From IMG/VR virus record IMGVR_UViG_3300020428_000009: 64,000 nt of DNA. One strand, given 5' to 3'. How positions within the stretch are numbered: the stretch's first letter is position 1; the number at the start of each line of letters is the position of its first letter. Origin of the DNA: an uncultured virus (IMG/VR IMGVR_UViG_3300020428_000009) (taxonomy: Duplodnaviria; Heunggongvirae; Uroviricota; Caudoviricetes). This document shows, one piece after another, positions 20,933 to 58,953 of this stretch. The position numbers and the translations under genes are program-made. Below the pieces are notes generated by a model. The model was not told where the DNA came from. It searched no databases and saw only the letters and a list, made by a program, of their open reading frames with translations.

Positions 20933-21295
20933 ATGGCAGACGATTTTGATTTTGGTTTTACCGCTGTAGATGAGATTCCAGCAGGAGAACCAAAAGAACC
21001 AATAAAAGCAGAAGTTCCAGATGATTTTAAAGATTCTATCATGGCAAAATTAGAACAACTGGAATCTAGAATTCTTGAAGCAGATAACAGTGGCATGGTC
21101 AACGAGCATAGAACATTGATAGAAAGTGATGTTGCTAGTAAGTTGCGTGATGTAGAAGACTTAATATTGCCGCTACTATCTAATCTAAAAAAGAATCCAG
21201 AAAAAGATTACATTCATTGGCCCAATCGAAATGTGATCATAGATAAACAGATTGAGAAGATACAAGCAGTAACGAGGTATTTTGAGAGAATATAA
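20933..21295 (+). CDS. Conserved hypothetical phage protein
   Basis: Strong AGGAGG RBS; DFDFGFTAVDE and NPEKDYIHWPNR motifs. Confidence 0.65.
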   Translation: MADDFDFGFTAVDEIPAGEPKEPIKAEVPDDFKDSIMAKLEQLESRILEADNSGMVNEHRTLIESDVASKLRDVEDLILPLLSNLKKNPEKDYIHWPNRNVIIDKQIEKIQAVTRYFERI

Positions 21296-22011
21296 TGATT
21301 GTTACATGTGGCGATAGTTTCGCCTGTTTTGATAAAAGAGAATCAAAAGAACTTCAATGGCCAGTTTATGTTGCCCGAAATCTAGGATATATATCTTCCA
21401 AACAACTTCATTTAGGCAGAGGTGCTAGTGATAACTGGTACATATATCTTCAAGCAAGATGGGCATTAGAAAATCATAATATAGATTACTTACTAGTTTG
21501 GTGGACCTCAACCGAAAGATTTTTTGTTAGACATCCTGATACAGAAGAAACGAAAATACCCTTGGCACCAAATCAGGTGGCCACTCATATAAATTTACCA
21601 GAAATAAATCATGTCTGGAAAGATTATGATCCTCAATATATTAGTGAAACATATAACAATGTGATACATGATTCAGATTTTCAATTTAATCAAAAATATA
21701 TGGACGAGTGTAGAGCGAGGCATAATTTATTAGAAGAAGATTGGATTGTTTTACAAAAATATTGGGAAAAATTTCATTCATCTAAAAAGAACGAGTTAGA
21801 ATTAGAGACTATGCAATATGTTATAAAGCATATGTGTGAAGAAAAGAAGATAAAATATATTAGTTTGCCAGATGAACACCTTAAGAATCTGAAAGCAGAA
21901 GAATTAGATACGGATATATTATGCAATCATTTTGGAATTAGAGGACATAAAGCGATAGGGGATTATATATTAAATGATCTTCTATTATACGAGACTAGAG
22001 TGAGGTTCTAA
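21295..22011 (+). CDS. SGNH/GDSL-hydrolase-like hypothetical protein
   Basis: GDSF, GASDN, C-terminal NH..GH. Confidence 0.55.
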   Translation: MIVTCGDSFACFDKRESKELQWPVYVARNLGYISSKQLHLGRGASDNWYIYLQARWALENHNIDYLLVWWTSTERFFVRHPDTEETKIPLAPNQVATHINLPEINHVWKDYDPQYISETYNNVIHDSDFQFNQKYMDECRARHNLLEEDWIVLQKYWEKFHSSKKNELELETMQYVIKHMCEEKKIKYISLPDEHLKNLKAEELDTDILCNHFGIRGHKAIGDYILNDLLLYETRVRF

Positions 22012-22163: not shown

Positions 22164-22176
22164 AATCAATGACTTA
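22164..22176 (+). promoter_or_regulatory. IHF-binding-site match (AATCAATGACTTA)
   Basis: Fits WATCAANNNNTTR, preceded by a T-rich tract, just upstream of a promoter. Confidence 0.55.
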
Positions 22177-22192
22177 AAAGTGTACAAAACCC

Positions 22193-22220
22193 TTGACTTT
22201 TACTCAGATTCCAGTATAAT
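22193..22220 (+). promoter_or_regulatory. Early sigma70-type promoter TTGACT-N16-TATAAT
   Basis: Motif; shares a 27-bp identical block with the promoter at 24554. Confidence 0.8.
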
Positions 22221-22247
22221 AGTATATGTAATTGAGAGAGTTTAAGT

Positions 22248-24548
22248 ATGCAAATAGCCCAAACAGATTATTTAGCGAAATTGCTTGCGACGGAAGATGT
22301 CAGTGTTAGATATGACAATGTTCCGACAGCAATGTTCGATCTAAAAACACGAACCATTATTCTCCCAAACTGGAAAGAATGTTCTCCTGCTTTGAGAGAT
22401 TTACTTGTTGGTCATGAAATTGGTCACGCTTTAGAAACTCCACCTGAGGGTTGGCATGATGCGATTTGTGATCAAGGTAAAGGATTCAAGTCATTCTTAA
22501 ATATTTGTGAGGATGCTAGAATTGAGACCGCAGTTAAGACTAAGTACCCTGGCATAGTCAGAAGTTTTTACGCAGGTTATAAAGAGTTGTTGGCAAAAGA
22601 TTTCTTCGGCATTGCTGGTAGAGATTTACAAGAATTGCCTTTAATCGATAGAATCAATCTTCACACCAAATGCGGCAGTTTGCTCGGCATTCAGTTTTCT
22701 GAGGAAGAGCAAGAGTTAGTCGATAGAGTTACGAATACCAATTCATGGGATGATGTAATGAACATTGCCTCAGAACTTTATGAGTATTCTAAAACTGAAG
22801 AATCTATGATAGAAGAACAACAAGACCTCTCTTTCGGTGAAGGAGATGATTTTGAATTCGATGAGTCTGATGATTACAGCGAGTCAAGTTCCACACCTTC
22901 ACAATCAGGTGAGTCTGAAGAGGAAGAAGACCAAGAGTCAGATTCTTCTGGTCAGAATGATGAGTCCGAAGAAGAGACTCAAGAAGAAAATTCATCCGCT
23001 TCTAATGAAGAGACTGAAGAAGAGGCTGAAGAAGAAAAATCTGAATCTAAAACAGAAACTGGTGGTGACATTAACGAAGGCTCTGATGCCGAATGTGACC
23101 CTGAAGCCATGACTGATACTAATTTCAGAAATAATGAAGAATCATTAGTCAATAATGATGTTAAATATATCGAAACTGTCAAGTGGATGAAATCTAAAAA
23201 AGATGATGTATATGTCATGCCAGTTTCTAAGACTTGGGACTTTGAGTTTGAATTCAGAAAAGGTGTTGCACTTGGTAATTACACTACCGTAACAAAAGCA
23301 ACGGCTGAGTCTATGTTGTGGAATGAATTCAATCAAAAGAACAAAACTTATATCAATCTTCTCGCCCAACAATTTGAGATGAAGAGAAAAGCATCCGTGC
23401 TTGCTAAAGCAAAGCAGTATAAGACTGGCAAGTTGAATGAAGATAAGTTGTGGGCATACAAGTTGACCGAAGATTTGTTCCTTGCAAATACAGTTATTCC
23501 TGATGGCAAGAATCATGGTCTTTTCATGATGATCGATATGTCAGGTTCCATGCATAATCAAATGGGTGCGACAATAGAACAGTTGTTAATCCAAGTTGCG
23601 TTTTGTAAGAAAGTAAATATTCCTTTCAAAGTGTACGGGTTCTCTGGCAATGGTCCAAAGTCTTCAGAAGTATATGACAAGATGGCGGCAAACATTGATT
23701 TCAGTGAAGGCAATTTGTTTATTGCTAATTCACATTTCTGTTTGATCGAATTGATTTCTTCCGAATTGTCTGGTAAAGATTATACTCAGACTTTCAAGAA
23801 ACTTCTCTCTTGGAAATTGGCATACACTTACCACAACTACTATGAAGATAGCGAGTTGTACCTTGAGAGGTATGATATTCCAGGTCACCTTCAGTTATCA
23901 CAAACTCCACTAGCACCAGCAGTTATGGTTGCTAGAAACTTAGCGATTAAGTTCCAGAGAGATAACAGAGTTGAGGTTTTAAATACGATAATTCTTACCG
24001 ATGGTGGTAATACTGATGAATTAGATATTGCTACTGGTGAGAACTTTGTTGATGGCGAGTTCAGACCTTACAAGTCTAAAAGACTTGAATACAGATGGGA
24101 TGAACTTCACATTAAAGAAGGTCCTGTTCTTACCAAATTCTCTACTGAAGAGAACAATGGAAGACACCATCAATCTATGTGGTACAAAGCCGCACTAAAG
24201 CATTACAAAGTTACCACTGGTTCTAGAATGATCTCCTTCTACATTTGTGATAATAAGAAAAGAGAAGTAGAACTAGCATATAGTGAGGCTACCGCTTCTT
24301 GGTGGAATGAAGAGTTTGATGCCAAGTACAAAGGCTTCAGAAAGAATAACTTCCTAGAAATCGAGAACGCTGGTTCTTTTGATTCAGTTTTCATCATTAA
24401 AGGTGGTAGAGACCTTGAAGTAGATGACGCAGAATTAGAGGTTGCTAGTGCTAAGAAAAGCGATCTCCTCAGAGGTTTTAAGAAGTTTAACAAAAATAAG
24501 TCAAATTCTAGAGCATTTTTGACTGCTTTTATTGAAAAAGTTGCATAA
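22248..24548 (+). CDS. CobT-like protein: HExxH metallopeptidase-like N-terminus, acidic linker, VWA domain
   Basis: GHEIGH; MIDMSGSM (MIDAS) and ILTDG; adjacent to MoxR/CobS ATPase. Confidence 0.8.
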   Translation: MQIAQTDYLAKLLATEDVSVRYDNVPTAMFDLKTRTIILPNWKECSPALRDLLVGHEIGHALETPPEGWHDAICDQGKGFKSFLNICEDARIETAVKTKYPGIVRSFYAGYKELLAKDFFGIAGRDLQELPLIDRINLHTKCGSLLGIQFSEEEQELVDRVTNTNSWDDVMNIASELYEYSKTEESMIEEQQDLSFGEGDDFEFDESDDYSESSSTPSQSGESEEEEDQESDSSGQNDESEEETQEENSSASNEETEEEAEEEKSESKTETGGDINEGSDAECDPEAMTDTNFRNNEESLVNNDVKYIETVKWMKSKKDDVYVMPVSKTWDFEFEFRKGVALGNYTTVTKATAESMLWNEFNQKNKTYINLLAQQFEMKRKASVLAKAKQYKTGKLNEDKLWAYKLTEDLFLANTVIPDGKNHGLFMMIDMSGSMHNQMGATIEQLLIQVAFCKKVNIPFKVYGFSGNGPKSSEVYDKMAANIDFSEGNLFIANSHFCLIELISSELSGKDYTQTFKKLLSWKLAYTYHNYYEDSELYLERYDIPGHLQLSQTPLAPAVMVARNLAIKFQRDNRVEVLNTIILTDGGNTDELDIATGENFVDGEFRPYKSKRLEYRWDELHIKEGPVLTKFSTEENNGRHHQSMWYKAALKHYKVTTGSRMISFYICDNKKREVELAYSEATASWWNEEFDAKYKGFRKNNFLEIENAGSFDSVFIIKGGRDLEVDDAELEVASAKKSDLLRGFKKFNKNKSNSRAFLTAFIEKVA

Positions 24549-24553
24549 AAGAC

Positions 24554-24581
24554 TTGACTTTTGGCAAAAAACCAGTATAAT
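24554..24581 (+). promoter_or_regulatory. Early sigma70-type promoter TTGACT-N16-TATAAT
   Basis: Motif; duplicate of the 22193 promoter module. Confidence 0.8.
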
Positions 24582-24615
24582 AGTATATGTAATTGAGAAA
24601 AGTGAGAGAGTAAAT

Positions 24616-25818
24616 ATGAATATACCTAAACCAAAACAAGACCTCTTTGAGGCAATCTCAGCGGCTGATGGAGATAATTTCACCAGAGCCGAGATTCAAA
24701 CTATCGCACAGTCTATTGGGCTAGCGAAGCAAGGTGCGGCTGTCGGGTGGATAGTGAGAAACTACGCAGTCGGTAAAAACCAGTACTCAGTTAAAGGAGA
24801 AGCACTTGGTGTCCAACAAGCCGTCAATAGTAATGTTGCACAACCTGTTGTTGCTCAGCCTCTTGAAGTTATCGAAACTAAGCCAGAGACTGTCGAAGCC
24901 TCTGCGGCTAAGATTTTGACCCAAGCAAAATTGGCTGTCGAAATTGACAATCTGGTTCCTGAAAAAGATGAGACCTATGTTCCTTTCGGTTTCTATAAAG
25001 ATTTGGTGAACATTGTCAAGTCTGATATGTTCTATCCAACTTTTATTTGTGGTCTCTCTGGTAACGGTAAGACTATGATGGTCGAGCAAGTTTGTGCCAG
25101 ACTGAAAAAAGAAGCGATCAGGGTCAATATCTCCATCGAGACTGATGAAGATGATTTGATTGGTGGTAATACACTGGTCGATGGCAATGTAGTTTACAGG
25201 GAAGGTCCTGTACTGACTGCTATGAAGAGAGGTGCGATCCTCATTCTAGATGAAATTGATAGGGGTTCTAACAAGTTGATGTGCCTACAAGCGATCCTTG
25301 AAGGAAAGCCTTACTTCAATAAGAAGTCTGGTGAGGTTGTTCAACCCGCTCCAGGTTTTAATGTGATTGCTACTGCTAATACCAAGGGTAGAGGTTCCGA
25401 TGACGGCAAGTTCATGGGTGCCCAGATCCTTGATGAGGCATTCCTCGAAAGGTTTGCTATTACTGTTGAGCAAGAATATCCTTCCAATGCCCAAGAGAAG
25501 AAAATTGTTCTCAATAAGATGTCAGTTGCCAATTGCATTGATGAAGAGTTCGCTACTAACTTAGTGAACTGGGCTGAAGTCATCAGGAAGACCTTCTATG
25601 AGGGTGCGATTGATGAGTTGATTTCGACCAGAAGGCTAGAACATATTGTCAAAGCCTTTGCAATGTTTGGTGATAGACTGAAAGCCATTCAGTTATGTGT
25701 CAATAGATTTGATACTGATACCAAAACTGCCTTTGTCGACCTTTACACCAAGGTCGATGAAGGGGTCGACCTCAATGCTGAAACCTCTGATGAAGAAACT
25801 GATGAAGAGGCAATTTAA
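24616..25818 (+). CDS. cobS: CobS-like / MoxR-type AAA+ ATPase
   Basis: GLSGNGKT, ILDEID, TANTKGRG, DEAFLERF, ISTRRL; start placed at ATG after GAGAGAG RBS. Confidence 0.88.
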   Translation: MNIPKPKQDLFEAISAADGDNFTRAEIQTIAQSIGLAKQGAAVGWIVRNYAVGKNQYSVKGEALGVQQAVNSNVAQPVVAQPLEVIETKPETVEASAAKILTQAKLAVEIDNLVPEKDETYVPFGFYKDLVNIVKSDMFYPTFICGLSGNGKTMMVEQVCARLKKEAIRVNISIETDEDDLIGGNTLVDGNVVYREGPVLTAMKRGAILILDEIDRGSNKLMCLQAILEGKPYFNKKSGEVVQPAPGFNVIATANTKGRGSDDGKFMGAQILDEAFLERFAITVEQEYPSNAQEKKIVLNKMSVANCIDEEFATNLVNWAEVIRKTFYEGAIDELISTRRLEHIVKAFAMFGDRLKAIQLCVNRFDTDTKTAFVDLYTKVDEGVDLNAETSDEETDEEAI

Positions 25819-25819
25819 A

Positions 25820-26170
25820 TTGAGTGATATAGATTACAAGTTCCGAGAGGACGAATTGATTTCCGAGTTGCAAACTTATATTGACAACACCTACGAAGGT
25901 CATTATGGTCAAGGTGGTTTGCAATCTTCTGAAGTCATAGTAGACCGCGGTAGAGGACTTGACTTTTTCCTAGGCAATGTCGATAAGTACAATGCCCGCT
26001 ATGGAAAGAAGGGTTCTGCTGACGATCACCGTAAAGATATACTGAAGATATTGCACTATGCACTATTGGCACTTTACGAACATGATCGCCAGAACCCTCC
26101 ACATCGCTCTGATAGTGATATAAATATTTCATATACATTACCAGAGTACAGTTTGAAGTTGACTGAATAA
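25820..26170 (+). CDS. Conserved T4-like hypothetical protein (DUF3310-like)
   Basis: TYEGHY, GNVDKYNARYGKKG, DILKILHYA; TTG start next to cobS stop. Confidence 0.65.
   Translation: MSDIDYKFREDELISELQTYIDNTYEGHYGQGGLQSSEVIVDRGRGLDFFLGNVDKYNARYGKKGSADDHRKDILKILHYALLALYEHDRQNPPHRSDSDINISYTLPEYSLKLTE
26119..26126 (+). promoter_or_regulatory. T4-type late promoter motif inside the 3' end of the 25820 ORF
   Basis: Exact TATAAATA about 55 nt before the hairpin. Confidence 0.45.
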
Positions 26171-26233
26171 ACAACTTCACCGACCCTCGGGGCTTACTCT
26201 CTCACTCTCTCAAATAGCCCCGAGGGTCTTTTT
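26132..26233 (+). ncRNA. Putative ~100-nt late small RNA with anti-RBS loop
   Basis: Late promoter plus terminator; loop complementary to GAGAGAGT leaders (see findings). Confidence 0.4.
26182..26233 (+). terminator. Intrinsic terminator with 13-bp GC-rich stem and unusually large 21-nt pyrimidine-rich loop
   Basis: gaccctcggggct / agccccgagggtc + ttttt. Confidence 0.85.
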
Positions 26234-26235
26234 CA

Positions 26236-26243
26236 TATAAATA
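26236..26243 (+). promoter_or_regulatory. T4-type late promoter TATAAATA
   Basis: Exact motif after terminator. Confidence 0.75.
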
Positions 26244-26275
26244 AGTAGAGTGAATGAGTTTAACGGAGACAAGAA

Positions 26276-26623
26276 ATGGCGTACAGATTCCAATATGTAC
26301 AAACAAGACCATCAACTGATGTTGAGTGGTACCAATTTAAATCAGATAGTTCTACGGAATGGAACACCCAAAGCGATGAGACTTTGGCTATTATTAATGA
26401 CGCTGGTGCAACTAAGTCTTTTACATTTTCTGATGACAATCTGACTTGGACAGTTTTAGTAGATTTCCCAAATAAAGCATCCGCTGATGCCTGTGCAGAC
26501 GCCTGTGCTTCCAATAATACATCCAAATACGCCGGTAAGAATGTTGACGAACATCCAGATTTCGTGGCTTACCGAAGTGCTAATAGTTTAACTTTTACGG
26601 AAACAGAAATCGGCACCGTATAA
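26276..26623 (+). CDS. Hypothetical late protein
   Basis: GGAG RBS, late promoter upstream. Confidence 0.6.
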   Translation: MAYRFQYVQTRPSTDVEWYQFKSDSSTEWNTQSDETLAIINDAGATKSFTFSDDNLTWTVLVDFPNKASADACADACASNNTSKYAGKNVDEHPDFVAYRSANSLTFTETEIGTV

Positions 26624-26633
26624 AATATTTCAC

Positions 26634-26662
26634 TTGACTTTTGTTTGTGAATGATGTATGAT
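26634..26662 (+). promoter_or_regulatory. Sigma70-type promoter TTGACT-N17-TATGAT (gp45)
   Basis: Intergenic motif. Confidence 0.7.
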
Positions 26663-26699
26663 GGATAAAATTTGATAATTGTGATGGAGACTTTATATA

Positions 26700-27347
26700 A
26701 TGAAAATATCAAACGAAACGCTGGAGATTCTACGGAATTATTCCACAATTAATACGAACATACTGATTAGACCCGGTAATGTTCTTTCAACTGTATCGAA
26801 TGGCATCAATATTTTTTCCCGAGCAGAAGTTAAAGAAACTTTTGATCGAGAGTTTGCCATTTACGATCTCAATAAACTGCTAGGAGTTCTGTCAGTACAC
26901 CCAGAAGCCGATCTTGAATTTACTGAAGATCGAATAATCATTGCTGGTAATGGTCAAACAGAATTCTTTTTCGCAGACCCATCGATTGTTACAGCCGCAC
27001 CAGATAAGACTATAGAAGTCGATAATTACTGGGCGTGTAGTATCGATGCCACCCTGATCAACAACTTGGTAAAGTTTGCCTCTGTTCTTTCTGCACCCAT
27101 ATTAAGCGTGGTGAGTAAGAATGGTAGAGTAACAATCGGAGTTGGTGATCCCACAACAGCCAAGACTGATAGCCACACAATAGAAATTGGTACATCACCA
27201 AATGAATTTGATTGCCGATTGCCTGTTGAAAATTTCAAGGTTATTCCTGGAACTTATAATATGATTCTGAGCCAGAAAAAGTTTATGTATCTTGAAGGTA
27301 CTGGTATTAAGTACTGGTTAGCCCTTGAACCTACTTCACAGATATAG
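26700..27347 (+). CDS. gp45: Sliding clamp
   Basis: MKISNETLEILRNYSTIN, FAIYDLNKLL, YWLALE. Confidence 0.93.
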   Translation: MKISNETLEILRNYSTINTNILIRPGNVLSTVSNGINIFSRAEVKETFDREFAIYDLNKLLGVLSVHPEADLEFTEDRIIIAGNGQTEFFFADPSIVTAAPDKTIEVDNYWACSIDATLINNLVKFASVLSAPILSVVSKNGRVTIGVGDPTTAKTDSHTIEIGTSPNEFDCRLPVENFKVIPGTYNMILSQKKFMYLEGTGIKYWLALEPTSQI

Positions 27348-30768: not shown

Positions 30769-30776
30769 TATAAATA
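30769..30776 (+). promoter_or_regulatory. T4-type late promoter TATAAATA (regA)
   Basis: Exact intergenic motif overlapping the left arm of a start-codon-sequestering inverted repeat. Confidence 0.65.
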
Positions 30777-30815: not shown

Positions 30816-31235
30816 ATGAGTAGTGATTTCTTTGAAATTGATTTTCCTGGTTATGAACCATTAGAGATCAAATTAAAAAATGCAGATGACTTTTTGAAAG
30901 TGCGAGAAACATTGAGTAGAATTGGTGTAGCCTCTAAAAAAGATAAAGTCTTGTATCAGTCTTGCCACATTTTACATAAGCAAGGCAGATATTTTATTAC
31001 CCACTTCAAAGAATTATTTGCCCTAGATGGTAAAGGCGCTGACTTTACCGAAAATGATATTCAGCGAAGAAATACGATTGCAAAACTTTTGAGTGACTGG
31101 GGTTTAATTGAAATACTAAATTCCCAAAAGTTTGTAGAAGACCAAGCACCACTAAGTCAAATTAAAGTGCTATCATTTAAAGAAAAAGATGATTGGTCAT
31201 TAGTCACGAAGTATAACATTGGGAGGAAGAAATGA
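30816..31235 (+). CDS. regA: Translational repressor RegA
   Basis: DDFLKVRETLSRIGVAS, LYQSCHILHKQGRYFITHFKELF. Confidence 0.97.
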   Translation: MSSDFFEIDFPGYEPLEIKLKNADDFLKVRETLSRIGVASKKDKVLYQSCHILHKQGRYFITHFKELFALDGKGADFTENDIQRRNTIAKLLSDWGLIEILNSQKFVEDQAPLSQIKVLSFKEKDDWSLVTKYNIGRKK

Positions 31236-31890: not shown

Positions 31891-31933
31891 ATAGTAGTGT
31901 GAATGCCGTATGTTTCGGGTTCACTTTTAATAA

Positions 31934-31952
31934 TCTTGCTTAATAAAGGAGA
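31934..31952 (+). promoter_or_regulatory. ROSE-like RNA thermometer hairpin over the hsp20 SD
   Basis: UCUUGCUU-aaua-AAGGAGA pairs with a bulged G. Confidence 0.6.
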
Positions 31953-31957
31953 CTAAA

Positions 31958-32449
31958 ATGGTTACTACAAGATTGACCGCGTCTGACATGGACGCATTTT
32001 TCAGACCCTTCACTATAGGGTTCGATAGAGTTTTTGATAATTTACACACGGTGAAAGATATCGCTTCAAATTATCCACCCTATAACATAATCAGAAAAGA
32101 TGAAGATACTTATTCCATAGAATTGGCTTGTGCTGGTTTTAGGGAAGATGAGTTCAATATTCATCTCGTACCTGAAGGCAACAAATTAGTTGTTCAAGGT
32201 GTTCAAGACAGAGGAGAGGATAAAAATGACTATCACTATCAGGGTATTAGTGCTAGGAATTTTACAAGAACTTTTGCTCTTGCTGAACACACCAAGGTAG
32301 ATAATGCCGAGTTCTCGGACGGCATGTTGATCATTACCTTAAGTCGAGAATTACCTGAAGAGTTAAAAGTCCAAGAGATACTGGTCAATGGTGTGCCACC
32401 ATTGGGCGGCAAGAAGACTGAGAAAACTCTTCTGAACGAAAACCAATAA
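31958..32449 (+). CDS. hsp20: Small heat shock protein (Hsp20/IbpA family)
   Basis: IGFDRVF, NYPPYNI, IELACAGF, GISARNFTRTF, DGML. Confidence 0.95.
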   Translation: MVTTRLTASDMDAFFRPFTIGFDRVFDNLHTVKDIASNYPPYNIIRKDEDTYSIELACAGFREDEFNIHLVPEGNKLVVQGVQDRGEDKNDYHYQGISARNFTRTFALAEHTKVDNAEFSDGMLIITLSRELPEELKVQEILVNGVPPLGGKKTEKTLLNENQ

Positions 32450-40307: not shown

Positions 40308-40335
40308 TTGACATTAGTGTAAGTCCTGCTATAAT
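40308..40335 (+). promoter_or_regulatory. Early sigma70-type promoter TTGACA-N16-TATAAT
   Basis: Consensus hexamers with TG extension. Confidence 0.8.
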
Positions 40336-40368
40336 GGATGTATAAATTGAGTTGAGAGAGTAAATATT

Positions 40369-40638
40369 ATGAGTGTACCAACTGTTAAGAAAATGATGCT
40401 GACTATGAGTCAGAAAGAGTTGTCCCAGATAATCGCTTTGGCACAACAAATTAAATCGATCTCTGCTACCGCTACTTTTTCAGTCGGTCAAGAGGTTGTC
40501 GTTGTTCAGAAAACAAAACGCACCGCTGGTGTCATCGTCAAGATGAACCCCAAGAAAGCCGTTGTCAGTATGTTGTTCGGTCGATCACAGCGAGTTTCTC
40601 AAGTGTCTGTTCCATTTTCAATGTTAGAGGCCGCTTGA
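40369..40638 (+). CDS. Early hypothetical protein (SH3/KOW-like beta fold suspected)
   Basis: FSVGQEVVV..GVIVKMN..VSVPFSML; GAGAGAG RBS. Confidence 0.55.
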   Translation: MSVPTVKKMMLTMSQKELSQIIALAQQIKSISATATFSVGQEVVVVQKTKRTAGVIVKMNPKKAVVSMLFGRSQRVSQVSVPFSMLEAA

Positions 40639-40703: not shown

Positions 40704-40913
40704 ATGAAAACGCCCCCCACCAAATTTAAATATCTCAAAGAGATTACTAAGTGGGATGAAGATATACCCAATCACACTTACATCTTTGATGATAAGAATC
40801 GTAATGTCGGCTATATAAAGACTGGCACTACCGAAGAAATATTTTATTCCAAACCTTCTACGCTTTTTAGTAAAACCCGTAGAAAATTTATAACCCTCAA
40901 GAGAGAGAATTAA
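40704..40913 (+). CDS. Hypothetical protein
   Basis: ATG after GAGGGG; KYLKEIT..PNHTY..FSKTRRKF. Confidence 0.55.
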   Translation: MKTPPTKFKYLKEITKWDEDIPNHTYIFDDKNRNVGYIKTGTTEEIFYSKPSTLFSKTRRKFITLKREN

Positions 40914-40914
40914 T

Positions 40915-41139
40915 ATGAGTGAAACAGTTATTGCTAGCCTAGGTAATATGGGCGAAGAAGAGTTGTCAGTTGAGGAATTTTTTCCTATACTTGAAACTTT
41001 ACGAGAGTCTGGTCGCATGAATATGTTTGGTGCACCTCGATGGCTCCGTGAGAATTGGGGTTTGAGTCGAGAAGACGCAAAAATGGTTTTTATAAAATGG
41101 TCAGAGTTTAAGGAGGCTGAATGCCGAGACAAGAGTTAG
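40915..41139 (+). CDS. Hypothetical protein
   Basis: LRESGRMNMFGAP motif; GAGAGAG RBS. Confidence 0.6.
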   Translation: MSETVIASLGNMGEEELSVEEFFPILETLRESGRMNMFGAPRWLRENWGLSREDAKMVFIKWSEFKEAECRDKS

Positions 41140-57830: not shown

Positions 57831-57859
57831 TTGACATCCAACCTTAAATTATGTATAAT
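57831..57859 (+). promoter_or_regulatory. Sigma70 promoter TTGACA-N17-TATAAT (primase)
   Basis: Perfect consensus; ATG 8 nt after the -10. Confidence 0.85.
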
Positions 57860-57867
57860 GTGGTCAT

Positions 57868-58953
57868 ATGAGTCTATACCTCGATGTTAAATATCTGAAC
57901 ATGATTTCTCACAGATTTGAGATTTTCAAACGAAAGGATGATTATCTCTTTAATGTGAGATGTCCCGTCTGTGGCGATTCCGCCAAAAATAAGCGAAAAA
58001 TGCGTGGCTATTTCTATCGTAAACAAAACGATATGTTTTACAAATGCCATAATTGCTCTCATGGTGCGTCTTTTGGTAATATGCTTAAAATGCTAGATCA
58101 AAACGCATACAAAGAATATGTCTTAGAAAGATACAAAGATGGAGTGAGCAAGTTTAAGCCCCACAAAGATCCAGAATTTCCTGATTTTGTACCTGACTTT
58201 GATAAAAGCAAGCATAAGTTTGTGCCTGACTTTGATAAGAAAGAGAAGCCTCCGTTTAAGAAATCTTCACCCGCTCGTATGATTGATCGAATCATGGATA
58301 GAGTTGACAATCTTCCATATGATCATGAAGCGGTAAAGTATTGTGAAGAGAGAAAAATACCTAAGCAAGTTTTTGATCGACTCTATTACATCGACAATGT
58401 GCAAGATGTAATTCAGTTGAATGATAAGTATAGAGAGAGTATAAAGACAAAAGAGCCTAGATTAGCAATACCGTTTTTTGACCAGCGCGGTCATTTGATG
58501 TCGGTAACACTAAGAGCGATGCGAGGAGAAACATTGCGATATATCTTAGTGAAAGTTAATGAAAGGGCTCCTACAGTATTTGGTTTAGATGAAGTTGATG
58601 TTTCTGAACCCATACTGGTTGTTGAAGGACCAATAGATAGTTTGTTCTTAGAAAATGCTATTGCAGTATCTGGCACATCTTTCTCCAAGATAGATGAGTT
58701 AGATTTACCACAAGAACAAATGACTATAGCCTTTGATAATCAGCCAAAGAATAGTGAAGTCTGCAAGTTGATGAAGAAGTATATCGATTTGAACTATTCG
58801 ATTTGTATCTGGCCGAATGACATAGAAGGTAAAGATATAAATGACATGATAATGAGCGGTATGACTACTGAAGATATTTCTAATTGTATTAAAGAAAATA
58901 CATTTCATGGTCTATCTGCTCAAATGAAGTTAACCGATTGGAAAAAATGTTAG
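57868..58953 (+). CDS. gp61: DNA primase
   Basis: RCPVCGDS, YKCHNC, VEGPIDS, DNQP, KDINDM. Confidence 0.96.
   Translation: MSLYLDVKYLNMISHRFEIFKRKDDYLFNVRCPVCGDSAKNKRKMRGYFYRKQNDMFYKCHNCSHGASFGNMLKMLDQNAYKEYVLERYKDGVSKFKPHKDPEFPDFVPDFDKSKHKFVPDFDKKEKPPFKKSSPARMIDRIMDRVDNLPYDHEAVKYCEERKIPKQVFDRLYYIDNVQDVIQLNDKYRESIKTKEPRLAIPFFDQRGHLMSVTLRAMRGETLRYILVKVNERAPTVFGLDEVDVSEPILVVEGPIDSLFLENAIAVSGTSFSKIDELDLPQEQMTIAFDNQPKNSEVCKLMKKYIDLNYSICIWPNDIEGKDINDMIMSGMTTEDISNCIKENTFHGLSAQMKLTDWKKC

Follow-up and report, generated by a model that had tools for sequence, protein, structure and literature searches.

A conserved terminator-like hairpin with a loop complementary to early leaders at the predicted end of a cobT-cobS operon in uncultured marine T4-like phages

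Introduction

Sets of early messages are silenced by their own phage at the ribosome-binding sites (RBS), by the c4 antisense RNA in P1 and P7 and by RegA and RegB in T4; c4 is cut out of the transcript that it regulates, while the translational shut-off of early genes in T4-type phages uses the proteins RegA and RegB. To our knowledge, only a few cases of pairing between the 5′ and the 3′ end of a bacterial-type mRNA are known (icaR and hbs). Four further systems come close to the element described here. In the icaR mRNA of Staphylococcus aureus, the motif UCCCCUG of the 3′ untranslated region (UTR) pairs with the Shine-Dalgarno (SD) sequence of the same message and blocks initiation (PMC3868564). 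The LhrC small RNAs of Listeria monocytogenes bind the SD region of lapB through a CU-rich terminator loop (PMC4132741). In Bacillus subtilis, the RBS is paired by sequences that resemble the anti-Shine-Dalgarno (anti-SD) sequence and lie hundreds of nucleotides (nt) downstream, with the effect that initiation is inhibited and decay is promoted (PMC12697547, preprint). The PeSL cassettes of T4-type phages are repeated units of a stem-loop, a promoter, an SD sequence and a start codon (PMC4122927). Here we describe a hairpin at 26182-26228 in a stretch of 64,000 nt (64 kb; hereafter the window) of the IMG/VR record IMGVR_UViG_3300020428_000009, which is part of the genome of an uncultured marine T4-like myovirus. 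Its large CU-repeat loop is an antisense copy of the short leaders of the operon that it appears to close.

Results

Structure and position of the hairpin

The hairpin consists of a perfect stem of 13 base pairs (bp), formed by 26182-26194 and 26216-26228 with 10 GC pairs, and of a 21-nt loop, TACTCTCTCACTCTCTCAAAT (26195-26215), that contains ACTCTCTC twice. The stem is the longest and most GC-rich perfect stem of the window, and the run of five T residues that follows it (T5, 26229-26233) gives the hairpin the look of an intrinsic terminator. It begins 11 nt past the stop codon of p122 and is overlapped by no open reading frame (ORF). The hairpin alone was predicted to fold with -27.1 kcal/mol and the 122-nt stretch that was folded with -36 kcal/mol (z = -6.1), an energy as good being reached by 0 of 200 shuffles. 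GC-rich stem and U-run after a stop codon are those of an intrinsic terminator; the loop, 21 nt here and 19-33 nt in relatives, exceeds the short loop of such terminators (about 3-8 nt), and a consensus terminator scan with loops of 3-8 nt did not return the hairpin. An Rfam scan of 21 kb gave no match at the hairpin, the C4 family included, and a scan of 201 nt gave only matches below the gathering score, the best being LhrC (RF00616; 22.5 bits against a gathering score of 110) and Pseudomon-1 (20.9 against 50). The hairpin family is absent from Rfam.

All genes of the window lie on the + strand. The local order is an early promoter (22193), a cobT-like gene, a second promoter cassette (24554), cobS, the DUF3310 gene p122, the hairpin, a late promoter (26236), a gene for 115 amino acids (aa) and gp45. 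The structure of the hairpin and its place at the operon end are established by these features, and on the strength of promoter and gene order it would be the intrinsic-terminator-like 3′ end of the predicted early cobT-cobS-p122 operon, so that the loop and its best targets would share one transcript.

Pairing of the loop with early leaders

Exact reverse complements of the loop were found at 24601-24613 (AGTGAGAGAGTAA, 13 nt; ATG of cobS at 24616), at 22232-22241 (TTGAGAGAGT, 10 nt; ATG of the cobT-like gene at 22248) and at 40353-40363 (TGAGAGAGTAA, 11 nt; ATG at 40369). Ranked by length, the first four exact complements in the 64 kb (13, 11, 10 and 10 nt) all belong to the three leaders that follow sigma70-type promoter cassettes. 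When the loop was paired with every 30-nt segment of the + strand, the cobS leader came first with -26.1 kcal/mol, the runner-up reached -20.6 kcal/mol and the leader of gene 40369 was fourth. Against the leaders of 75 genes, the four strongest were those of cobS (-26.1 kcal/mol), gene 40369 (-19.4 kcal/mol), gene 26276 (-15.8 kcal/mol) and the cobT-like gene (-15.7 kcal/mol). The median was -6.6 kcal/mol, in line with the proposal that genes with AGGAG sites pair poorly. None of 300 shuffled loops reached -26.1 kcal/mol, the best shuffle giving -19.3 kcal/mol.

The predicted duplex with the cobS leader uses 20 of the 21 loop bases and has 12 + 6 pairs and a small bulge. The duplex covers 24592-24613, which includes the GA-repeat RBS and is most of the predicted 5′UTR of ~27 nt (the transcription start of cobS was inferred from the position of the -10 box), and it ends 2 nt before the ATG. 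The leaders were predicted to be unstructured on their own. An anti-SD motif at the 3′ end facing the SD region of the same mRNA, the arrangement of icaR, is present here, since both elements lie between the 24554 promoter and the hairpin. The original prediction had described the stem, the 21-nt loop with its two ACTCTCTC copies, T5, the leader matches, a GAGAGAG before the ORF at 40915 and a late promoter motif, TATAAATA, and each of these was found where it had placed them. Its view of the loop as a putative single-stranded anti-leader (anti-SD) element directed at early GA-repeat RBS is supported, and neither the energy scan nor the exact-match scan showed equally good matches scattered over sites other than RBS.

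GA-repeat RBS were also seen at gene 21295 (21281-21297, TTTGAGAGA) and at the small ORF starting at 40915 (40898-40917, AGAGAGAGA, with GAGAGAG at 40901-40907), within or adjoining early operons. Their predicted pairing with the loop is weak (-12.5 and -12.0 kcal/mol, respectively).

Conservation of the hairpin in relatives

Hairpins were sought in the window and in 80 syntenic loci (cobT-cobS-p122...gp45; numbered with L) obtained by a cobS-based IMG/VR search. This yielded 25 distinct hairpins whose loops carry a CU motif, located just past the p122 stop codon, those of L011 and L027 lying ~1.1 kb further downstream and still before gp45; no other large-loop hairpin in the searched loci has a CU-motif loop. 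The loops are 19-33 nt long and share an invariant CTCTC core with variable flanks across clades. The stems share no sequence (for example GACCCTCGGGGCT, GCCGGACACTGGTG, GGGCGGCGGTAT and ACCTAGGTAGTCATGTGTG) and all still pair. TTTT follows within 10 nt in 17 of the 25.

A covariance model built from two sequences, the window and L002, was run on 52 sources and recovered 18 plus-strand copies at E <= 1. Covariation was measured on the model-fitted alignment (A3); a MAFFT alignment of 24 hairpins (A1) left the stems out of register. In A3, 98.5% of the cells pair, as against 60% after shuffling and 27-45% after sliding, and double-sided changes occur at all 13 of the 13 pairs. The covariation score was 0.814 against 0.182 and was reached by 0 of 500 shuffles. 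Stem covariation is thereby established, and the hairpin is, as far as such comparison tells, a conserved structured RNA whose pairs are kept through compensatory changes.

An ordinary intrinsic terminator with a functionless loop, its leader match having arisen by chance from low-complexity sequence, would account for a GC-rich stem with a T-run right after a stop codon, and the lack of GAGAGAG enrichment in the window would suit it. It does not fit with loops of 19-33 nt that keep a fixed CU core across 25 distinct hairpins with unrelated stems, nor with an observed energy that shuffled loops never reach and a loop that co-varies with the leader. Relatives without the CU loop, moreover, have a small ordinary terminator or none at the p122 3′ position. 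This explanation is already hard to hold, and we regard it as highly improbable.

Hairpins with the same loop core, ACTCTCTCACTCTCTCTCA, and other stems were also seen in another phage lineage, directly after a stop codon, in L100 (2993), L123 (2578, reverse strand) and L139. These have no T-run, and TATAAATA follows ~60 nt further on; the three loci hold no leader match of at least 10 nt to the loop.

Co-variation of loop and leader

The flanks of the CU/GA core change jointly in loop and leader. The leader GAGAGAGTAA of the window faces the loop TTACTCTCTC, and the leader GAGAGAGGTCA of L008, L030 and L032 faces TGACCTCTCTC; the loop of L003 contains the exact complement of a 14-nt leader segment, AATTGAGAGAGAGT. 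A single loop complement of L034, ATTGAGGAGAGGAGTTAGAGTTAT, comprises both GAGAGGAGT of the cobS leader and GAGGAGTTAGA of the cobT leader. The 12-nt match of L053, TATAGTTAGGAA, lies on the 5′-most part of the leader, 22-33 nt upstream of the ATG. When the longest loop complement was determined per locus (21 loci), 15 loci had it in an RBS-proximal leader and 3 (L017, L019 and L020) had it in the leader of the next gene. The matched positions are -20 to -3, on the RBS, in most clades.

For 10 clade representatives, the longest matches between each loop and its own cobS leader summed to 102, which none of 200,000 random assignments reached; the expectation that the loop co-varies with the early RBS in relatives was thus borne out. 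The sum of duplex energies in six representatives was reached by 4 of 720 permutations. The type of the cobS leader also follows the hairpin: GA-repeat leaders were found in 17 of 19 loci with the hairpin (one exception being a start-codon miscall) and GTGAGGA leaders in 15 of 19 without it (Fisher p = 4.7e-5, uncorrected for relatedness). Complementarity and co-variation of loop and leader are established by these counts.

The loop could instead be a site for a protein or host factor, such as a pyrimidine-binding ribosomal or RNA-chaperone protein, or could target a host RNA, the leader match being secondary. The invariant CTCTC core with varying flanks is compatible with such a site, as are the stand-alone copy in phage Melnitz, described below, which is without a phage leader target, and the hairpins of L068, L080 and L100/L123/L139, which show no clear leader match in their own loci. 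Such a site would not predict that bases outside the core co-vary with the leaders (GTAA/TTAC, GGTCA/TGACC, GAGGAGTTAGA and TATAGTTAGGAA), and it leaves aside that the presence of the hairpin tracks the leader type. We consider this unlikely.

Late-promoter motifs around the hairpin

The original prediction offered two origins for the RNA, a gp55-dependent late small RNA transcribed from the TATAAATA motif at 26119 or the 3′ end of the operon. The former would be a separate RNA of ~100 nt, made late by RNA polymerase with gp55, that shuts off early mRNAs. The motif is present at 26119-26126 (+), and TATAAATA occurs 18 times in the window, all 18 copies on the + strand where 5.9 are expected on both strands, so that most are likely to be real late promoters. 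The copy at 26119, however, is intragenic: it lies inside the p122 coding sequence (CDS), in a C-terminal extension that is absent from most relatives, and the window has 4 intragenic copies where ~3 chance copies are expected on one strand. In the 160 nt that precede the hairpin, its core ATAAATA was found in one of 20 loci, namely the window, and it is absent in L002 (82-85% protein identity); with no conserved upstream promoter, a gp55-driven late RNA is unsupported, and the motif is probably not the promoter of the RNA. The Melnitz copy stands behind a sigma70-type promoter, which also counts against a late origin. A late small RNA is therefore very unlikely. The second origin fits, since the hairpin closes an operon with early sigma70-type promoters.

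Directly downstream of the hairpin, in contrast to the upstream motif, TATAAATA is kept in 19 of 20 loci; in the window it lies at 26236-26243 (+), ahead of the next gene (26276-26623). The start of the leader of that gene (26243-26260, +) is a weaker complement of the loop. In the L017 group (L017, L019-L022, L026, L045) and in L023, the best loop complement, AGAGAGTAAGA (10-11 nt), was seen directly after the late promoter and not in the cobS leader.

The early-transcript silencing of a late gene has a precedent in the gene e / soc arrangement of T4. By analogy, the loop of a read-through early RNA could silence gene 26276, the late transcripts from TATAAATA at 26236 lacking the loop and being translated. 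The order of loop, late promoter and next gene, kept in the same 19 of 20 loci, would suit this, and the leader of the next gene is the third best of the 75 targets in the window, besides the position of the match in the L017 group. The match misses the SD sequence of the next gene, however, and in most clades the cobS or cobT match is much longer, the downstream match of L008 and L032 being 4-5 nt. We judge such an arrangement to be quite improbable here.

Complete relatives, phage Melnitz and metatranscriptomes

Whole genomes were viewed by script in two complete relatives, G002 (the record behind L006) and G004, of 165.6 and 165.1 kb, each of which has one CU-repeat hairpin. Among all gene leaders, that of cobS ranked 2nd of 202 and 2nd of 200 as a target of the loop, and that of cobT 3rd of 202. 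In G002, 6 of the 14 longest same-strand loop matches fall within leaders that follow sigma70-type promoters at scattered places of the genome, and matches of at least 9 nt number 20 on the same strand and 5 on the other, the hairpin itself being excluded; both the scatter and the strand bias make an action in trans possible. A general switch from early to late that would act on every early gene, as had been proposed, is weakly supported: by crude promoter calls, genes with a promoter are over-represented in the ten best targets of the window (p = 0.0075) but not in those of the two complete relatives (p = 0.08 and 0.55). The operon's own cobS and cobT leaders are the robust targets.

On the reverse strand of G002 (1238-1272), a second terminator-like hairpin was noticed; its loop of 17 nt is all pyrimidine and has CUCCUCC at its end, and a T-run and a TATA resembling a late promoter follow.

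The major capsid protein of the window is 66-68% identical to those of the Pelagibacter phages HTVC008M and Mosig and of the Methylophilales phage Melnitz, whereas its CobS is at most 52% identical to that of any cultured phage (best HTVC008M, 52%; cyanophages ~50%). HTVC008M and Mosig contain no CU-repeat motif, and no such hairpin was found in the cobS region of HTVC008M. Melnitz carries what by sequence is a stand-alone unit: a sigma70-type promoter, a stem of 15 bp enclosing the loop ACCTCTCTCTCGACTTTCTCTCTCA and, separately, a terminator. The unit is annotated as the CDS MelnitzEXVC044M_66 (L152, 4548-4727; MZ577097.1, 38547-38726) and probably encodes a small RNA and not a protein.

In metatranscriptomes, sampled words of the region were present at 5-7% in five runs. 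Contigs of four runs cover 24400-24631, 25054-25236, 25666-25973 and 26627-26800, which are outside the hairpin, and contigs give neither ends nor levels.

Neighbouring features

The putative sigma70-type early promoter of the cobT-like gene (22193-22220, +) has TTGACT, a 16-nt spacer and TATAAT, matching 11 of 12 consensus positions. It is followed by the leader segment complementary to the loop (22231-22249, +) and by the cobT-like gene itself (22248-24548, +; 766 aa), which belongs to phrog_459 ('peptidase') and weakly matches a cobalamin-biosynthesis PHROG. The cassette of cobS (24554-24581, +) is nearly identical to it and precedes the pairing leader segment (24592-24613, +) and cobS (24616-25818, +; phrog_249), a MoxR-type AAA+ ATPase. 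The last gene of the operon, p122 (25802-26170, +; phrog_480), encodes a DUF3310 protein of 122 aa. The third cassette (40308-40335, +) precedes the complementary leader (40348-40363, +) of gene 40369-40638, which is on a separate transcript.

A small hairpin of 8 bp is predicted over the p122 stop codon (26154-26179, +), and short GC-rich hairpins with differing stems were also observed at the p122 stop in L003, L004, L017, L023, L030 and L032. The 3′ end of the operon may be a module of two hairpins, the 8-bp one and the large one.

The motif AATCAATG(A/G)CTTA was noticed at 22165-22178, ~25 nt ahead of the -35 box of the cobT promoter, and is conserved in the distant relatives L020, L022, L027, L053 and G002; it may be a regulator site or a UP-type site. 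As a general mark of target leaders, CAATG[AG]CTTA was tried and rejected, as it precedes a single promoter in the window, 3 in G002 and a single one in G004; the four copies of G002 are at 3 promoters, one of which is preceded by two copies.

Three further observations concern other genes of the window. An early promoter with full consensus (TTGACA, 17-nt spacer, TATAAT) at 57831-57870 ends 8 nt short of the ATG of the gene for primase, whose message would be nearly leaderless. A homologue of the translational repressor RegA is encoded at 30816-31235 (Pfam Translat_reg, E = 1.2e-47) behind a late promoter at 30769; the phage thus also has a protein-based repressor of early messages, to which the RNA would be an additional layer. 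A weak match to the Rfam RNA thermometer ROSE_3 (31897-31963, +; 25.6 bits with a gathering score of 43, E = 0.15) directly precedes an Hsp20 gene (31958-32449, Pfam HSP20), and this region folds no better than its shuffles (z = -0.67).

Discussion

Selection would maintain both the pairing of the stem and the CU-repeat loop, which is unpaired, unusually large and antisense to the operon's own short 5′ leaders. From the complementarity, its position and its joint evolution with the leaders we infer that pairing occurs in the cell and that its sign is repressive, in cis or in trans. Once the 3′ end is made, the loop would pair with the ribosome-binding GA repeats in the leaders of cobS and cobT, within one molecule, from one molecule to another or as part of a stable 3′ fragment; early leaders of similar sequence, for example 40348-40363, would perhaps be paired too. 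Such pairing would hide the RBS and so restrict any further translation, and it may also make the message open to cleavage specific for double strands. On balance, we lean towards the reading that this terminator and 3′ end is, through its anti-leader loop, a translational repressor of its own operon and perhaps also of early leaders that resemble those of the operon.

Several observations weigh against this. Within the window, the cobT leader is only 18th in the whole-window energy scan, and GAGAGAG taken as a bare 7-mer shows no enrichment (11 copies against 11.35 expected). A closed loop of 21 nt cannot form a full helix of 18-20 bp without strain, and only a partial duplex may arise. Among the relatives, the alignment behind the covariation values was fitted to the structure of the model and includes two reverse-strand rows. 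TTTT within 10 nt is lacking in 8 of the 25 hairpins, and L041, L068 and L080 have no T-run at all, which also means that termination alone does not explain why the hairpin is retained. The longest loop complement falls in no leader in L068 and L080, which have the hairpin and no clear match, and likewise in L039, where the leader DNA is absent. The cobS leader of the L017 group matches over no more than 7 nt, the best match of this group (11 nt) being just past the downstream late promoter. The own leader is the row maximum in just 6 of the 10 clade representatives, in 4 of them uniquely, and duplex energies across clades often equal those within a clade, so that much of the signal is generic pairing of CU with GA. 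The representatives are moreover related, which leaves ~5-6 independent co-variation events rather than 10. Finally, the 141.5-kb genome of Melnitz has no outstanding leader target for its CU loop, the best site (-24.9 kcal/mol) being inside a coding region, which leaves room for a function besides leader pairing.

The same pairing could also have a positive effect. Bacterial mRNAs are protected from RNase E by a base-paired 5′ end, as cyanophage mRNAs are by the formation of duplexes. A ring of 3′ loop and 5′ leader could shield the 5′ end and the AU-rich leader from host RNases and so stabilise the cobT-cobS message. That the complement spans nearly the whole predicted 5′UTR, beyond the RBS, speaks for it, as does L053, whose complement lies on the 5′-most leader segment and not on the SD sequence. 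In most clades, however, the match is on the RBS, where pairing must compete with ribosomes, and the experimentally studied analogues (icaR, LhrC and long-range anti-SD sequences) all repress. We hold stabilisation to be a rather unlikely role.

If the loop does repress its own operon, the message may time itself: the anti-leader loop is transcribed last, and initiation would be open only between the synthesis of the leader and that of the 3′ end, after which the message would close itself. A nuclease-resistant hairpin that outlasts the message may further act in trans on look-alike early leaders. We put this forward tentatively, as a possible but not a probable extension. If true, it would be an early shut-off built into a terminator and made of RNA only, in a widespread clade of uncultured marine T4-like phages, that evolves by co-variation of loop and leader.

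An RNA device in the terminator of an early operon would, if true, add a new layer to the timing of phage genes and provide a natural, conserved example of 5′-3′ end pairing in a bacterial-type mRNA. The hairpin family is abundant in marine viral metagenomes and its co-variation, of the intermolecular style, is unusually clear; it is therefore a good test case for the co-evolution of anti-SD elements and leaders. In full-text literature searches, supplements being outside their scope, no description of a CU-loop anti-leader hairpin was found.

The icaR mRNA is like the phage locus in having a pyrimidine-rich anti-SD element at the 3′ end of a message, complementary to the ribosome-binding region of that same message; by analogy, blocked initiation and an RNase substrate that is double-stranded would be the expected outcome. 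It differs in that the icaR element is a site in a long 3′UTR and the phage element is the loop of the terminator hairpin itself. The phage loop also mirrors nearly the whole of a short 5′UTR (at most 13 contiguous and ~18 total pairs) and does so for two leaders of an operon with two promoters. It belongs to a lytic phage and is conserved in a clade with covariation, and it is known here from sequence alone.

With LhrC, the hairpin shares a CU motif in a terminator loop that faces an AG-rich ribosome-binding region; there, translation is blocked and the loops are the sites of first contact. LhrC, however, is a stand-alone, stress-induced, multicopy small RNA with three redundant sites, and the low Rfam score of the phage hairpin makes it an analogue and not a member of that family. 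The distant pyrimidine-rich sequences of B. subtilis likewise pair with the RBS, which makes cis pairing over kilobases physically plausible. They are synthetic substitutions or are generally avoided, whereas the phage sequence is positively conserved and placed in a structured loop.

The three near-identical early promoter-leader cassettes of the window resemble the repeated composite units of PeSL. PeSL stem-loops stand just upstream of sigma70 early promoters, are many per genome and are discussed as recombination substrates (PMC4122927); the word 'complementary' is absent from that paper, which thus describes no pairing of a PeSL loop with a leader. The phage hairpin instead precedes a late promoter, and complete genomes have one or two hairpins with a CU loop. 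It also differs from c4, as no Rfam C4 match was obtained at the hairpin, and from RegA and RegB, which are proteins.

Taken together, icaR, LhrC and the long-range anti-SD sequences show that each step of the proposed mechanism is feasible. Anti-SD elements at the 3′ end of messages are already known from them; what appears to be new in the marine T4-like phages is that such an element is built into the loop of a phage terminator and, by all indications of the comparison, has co-evolved with the leaders it matches.

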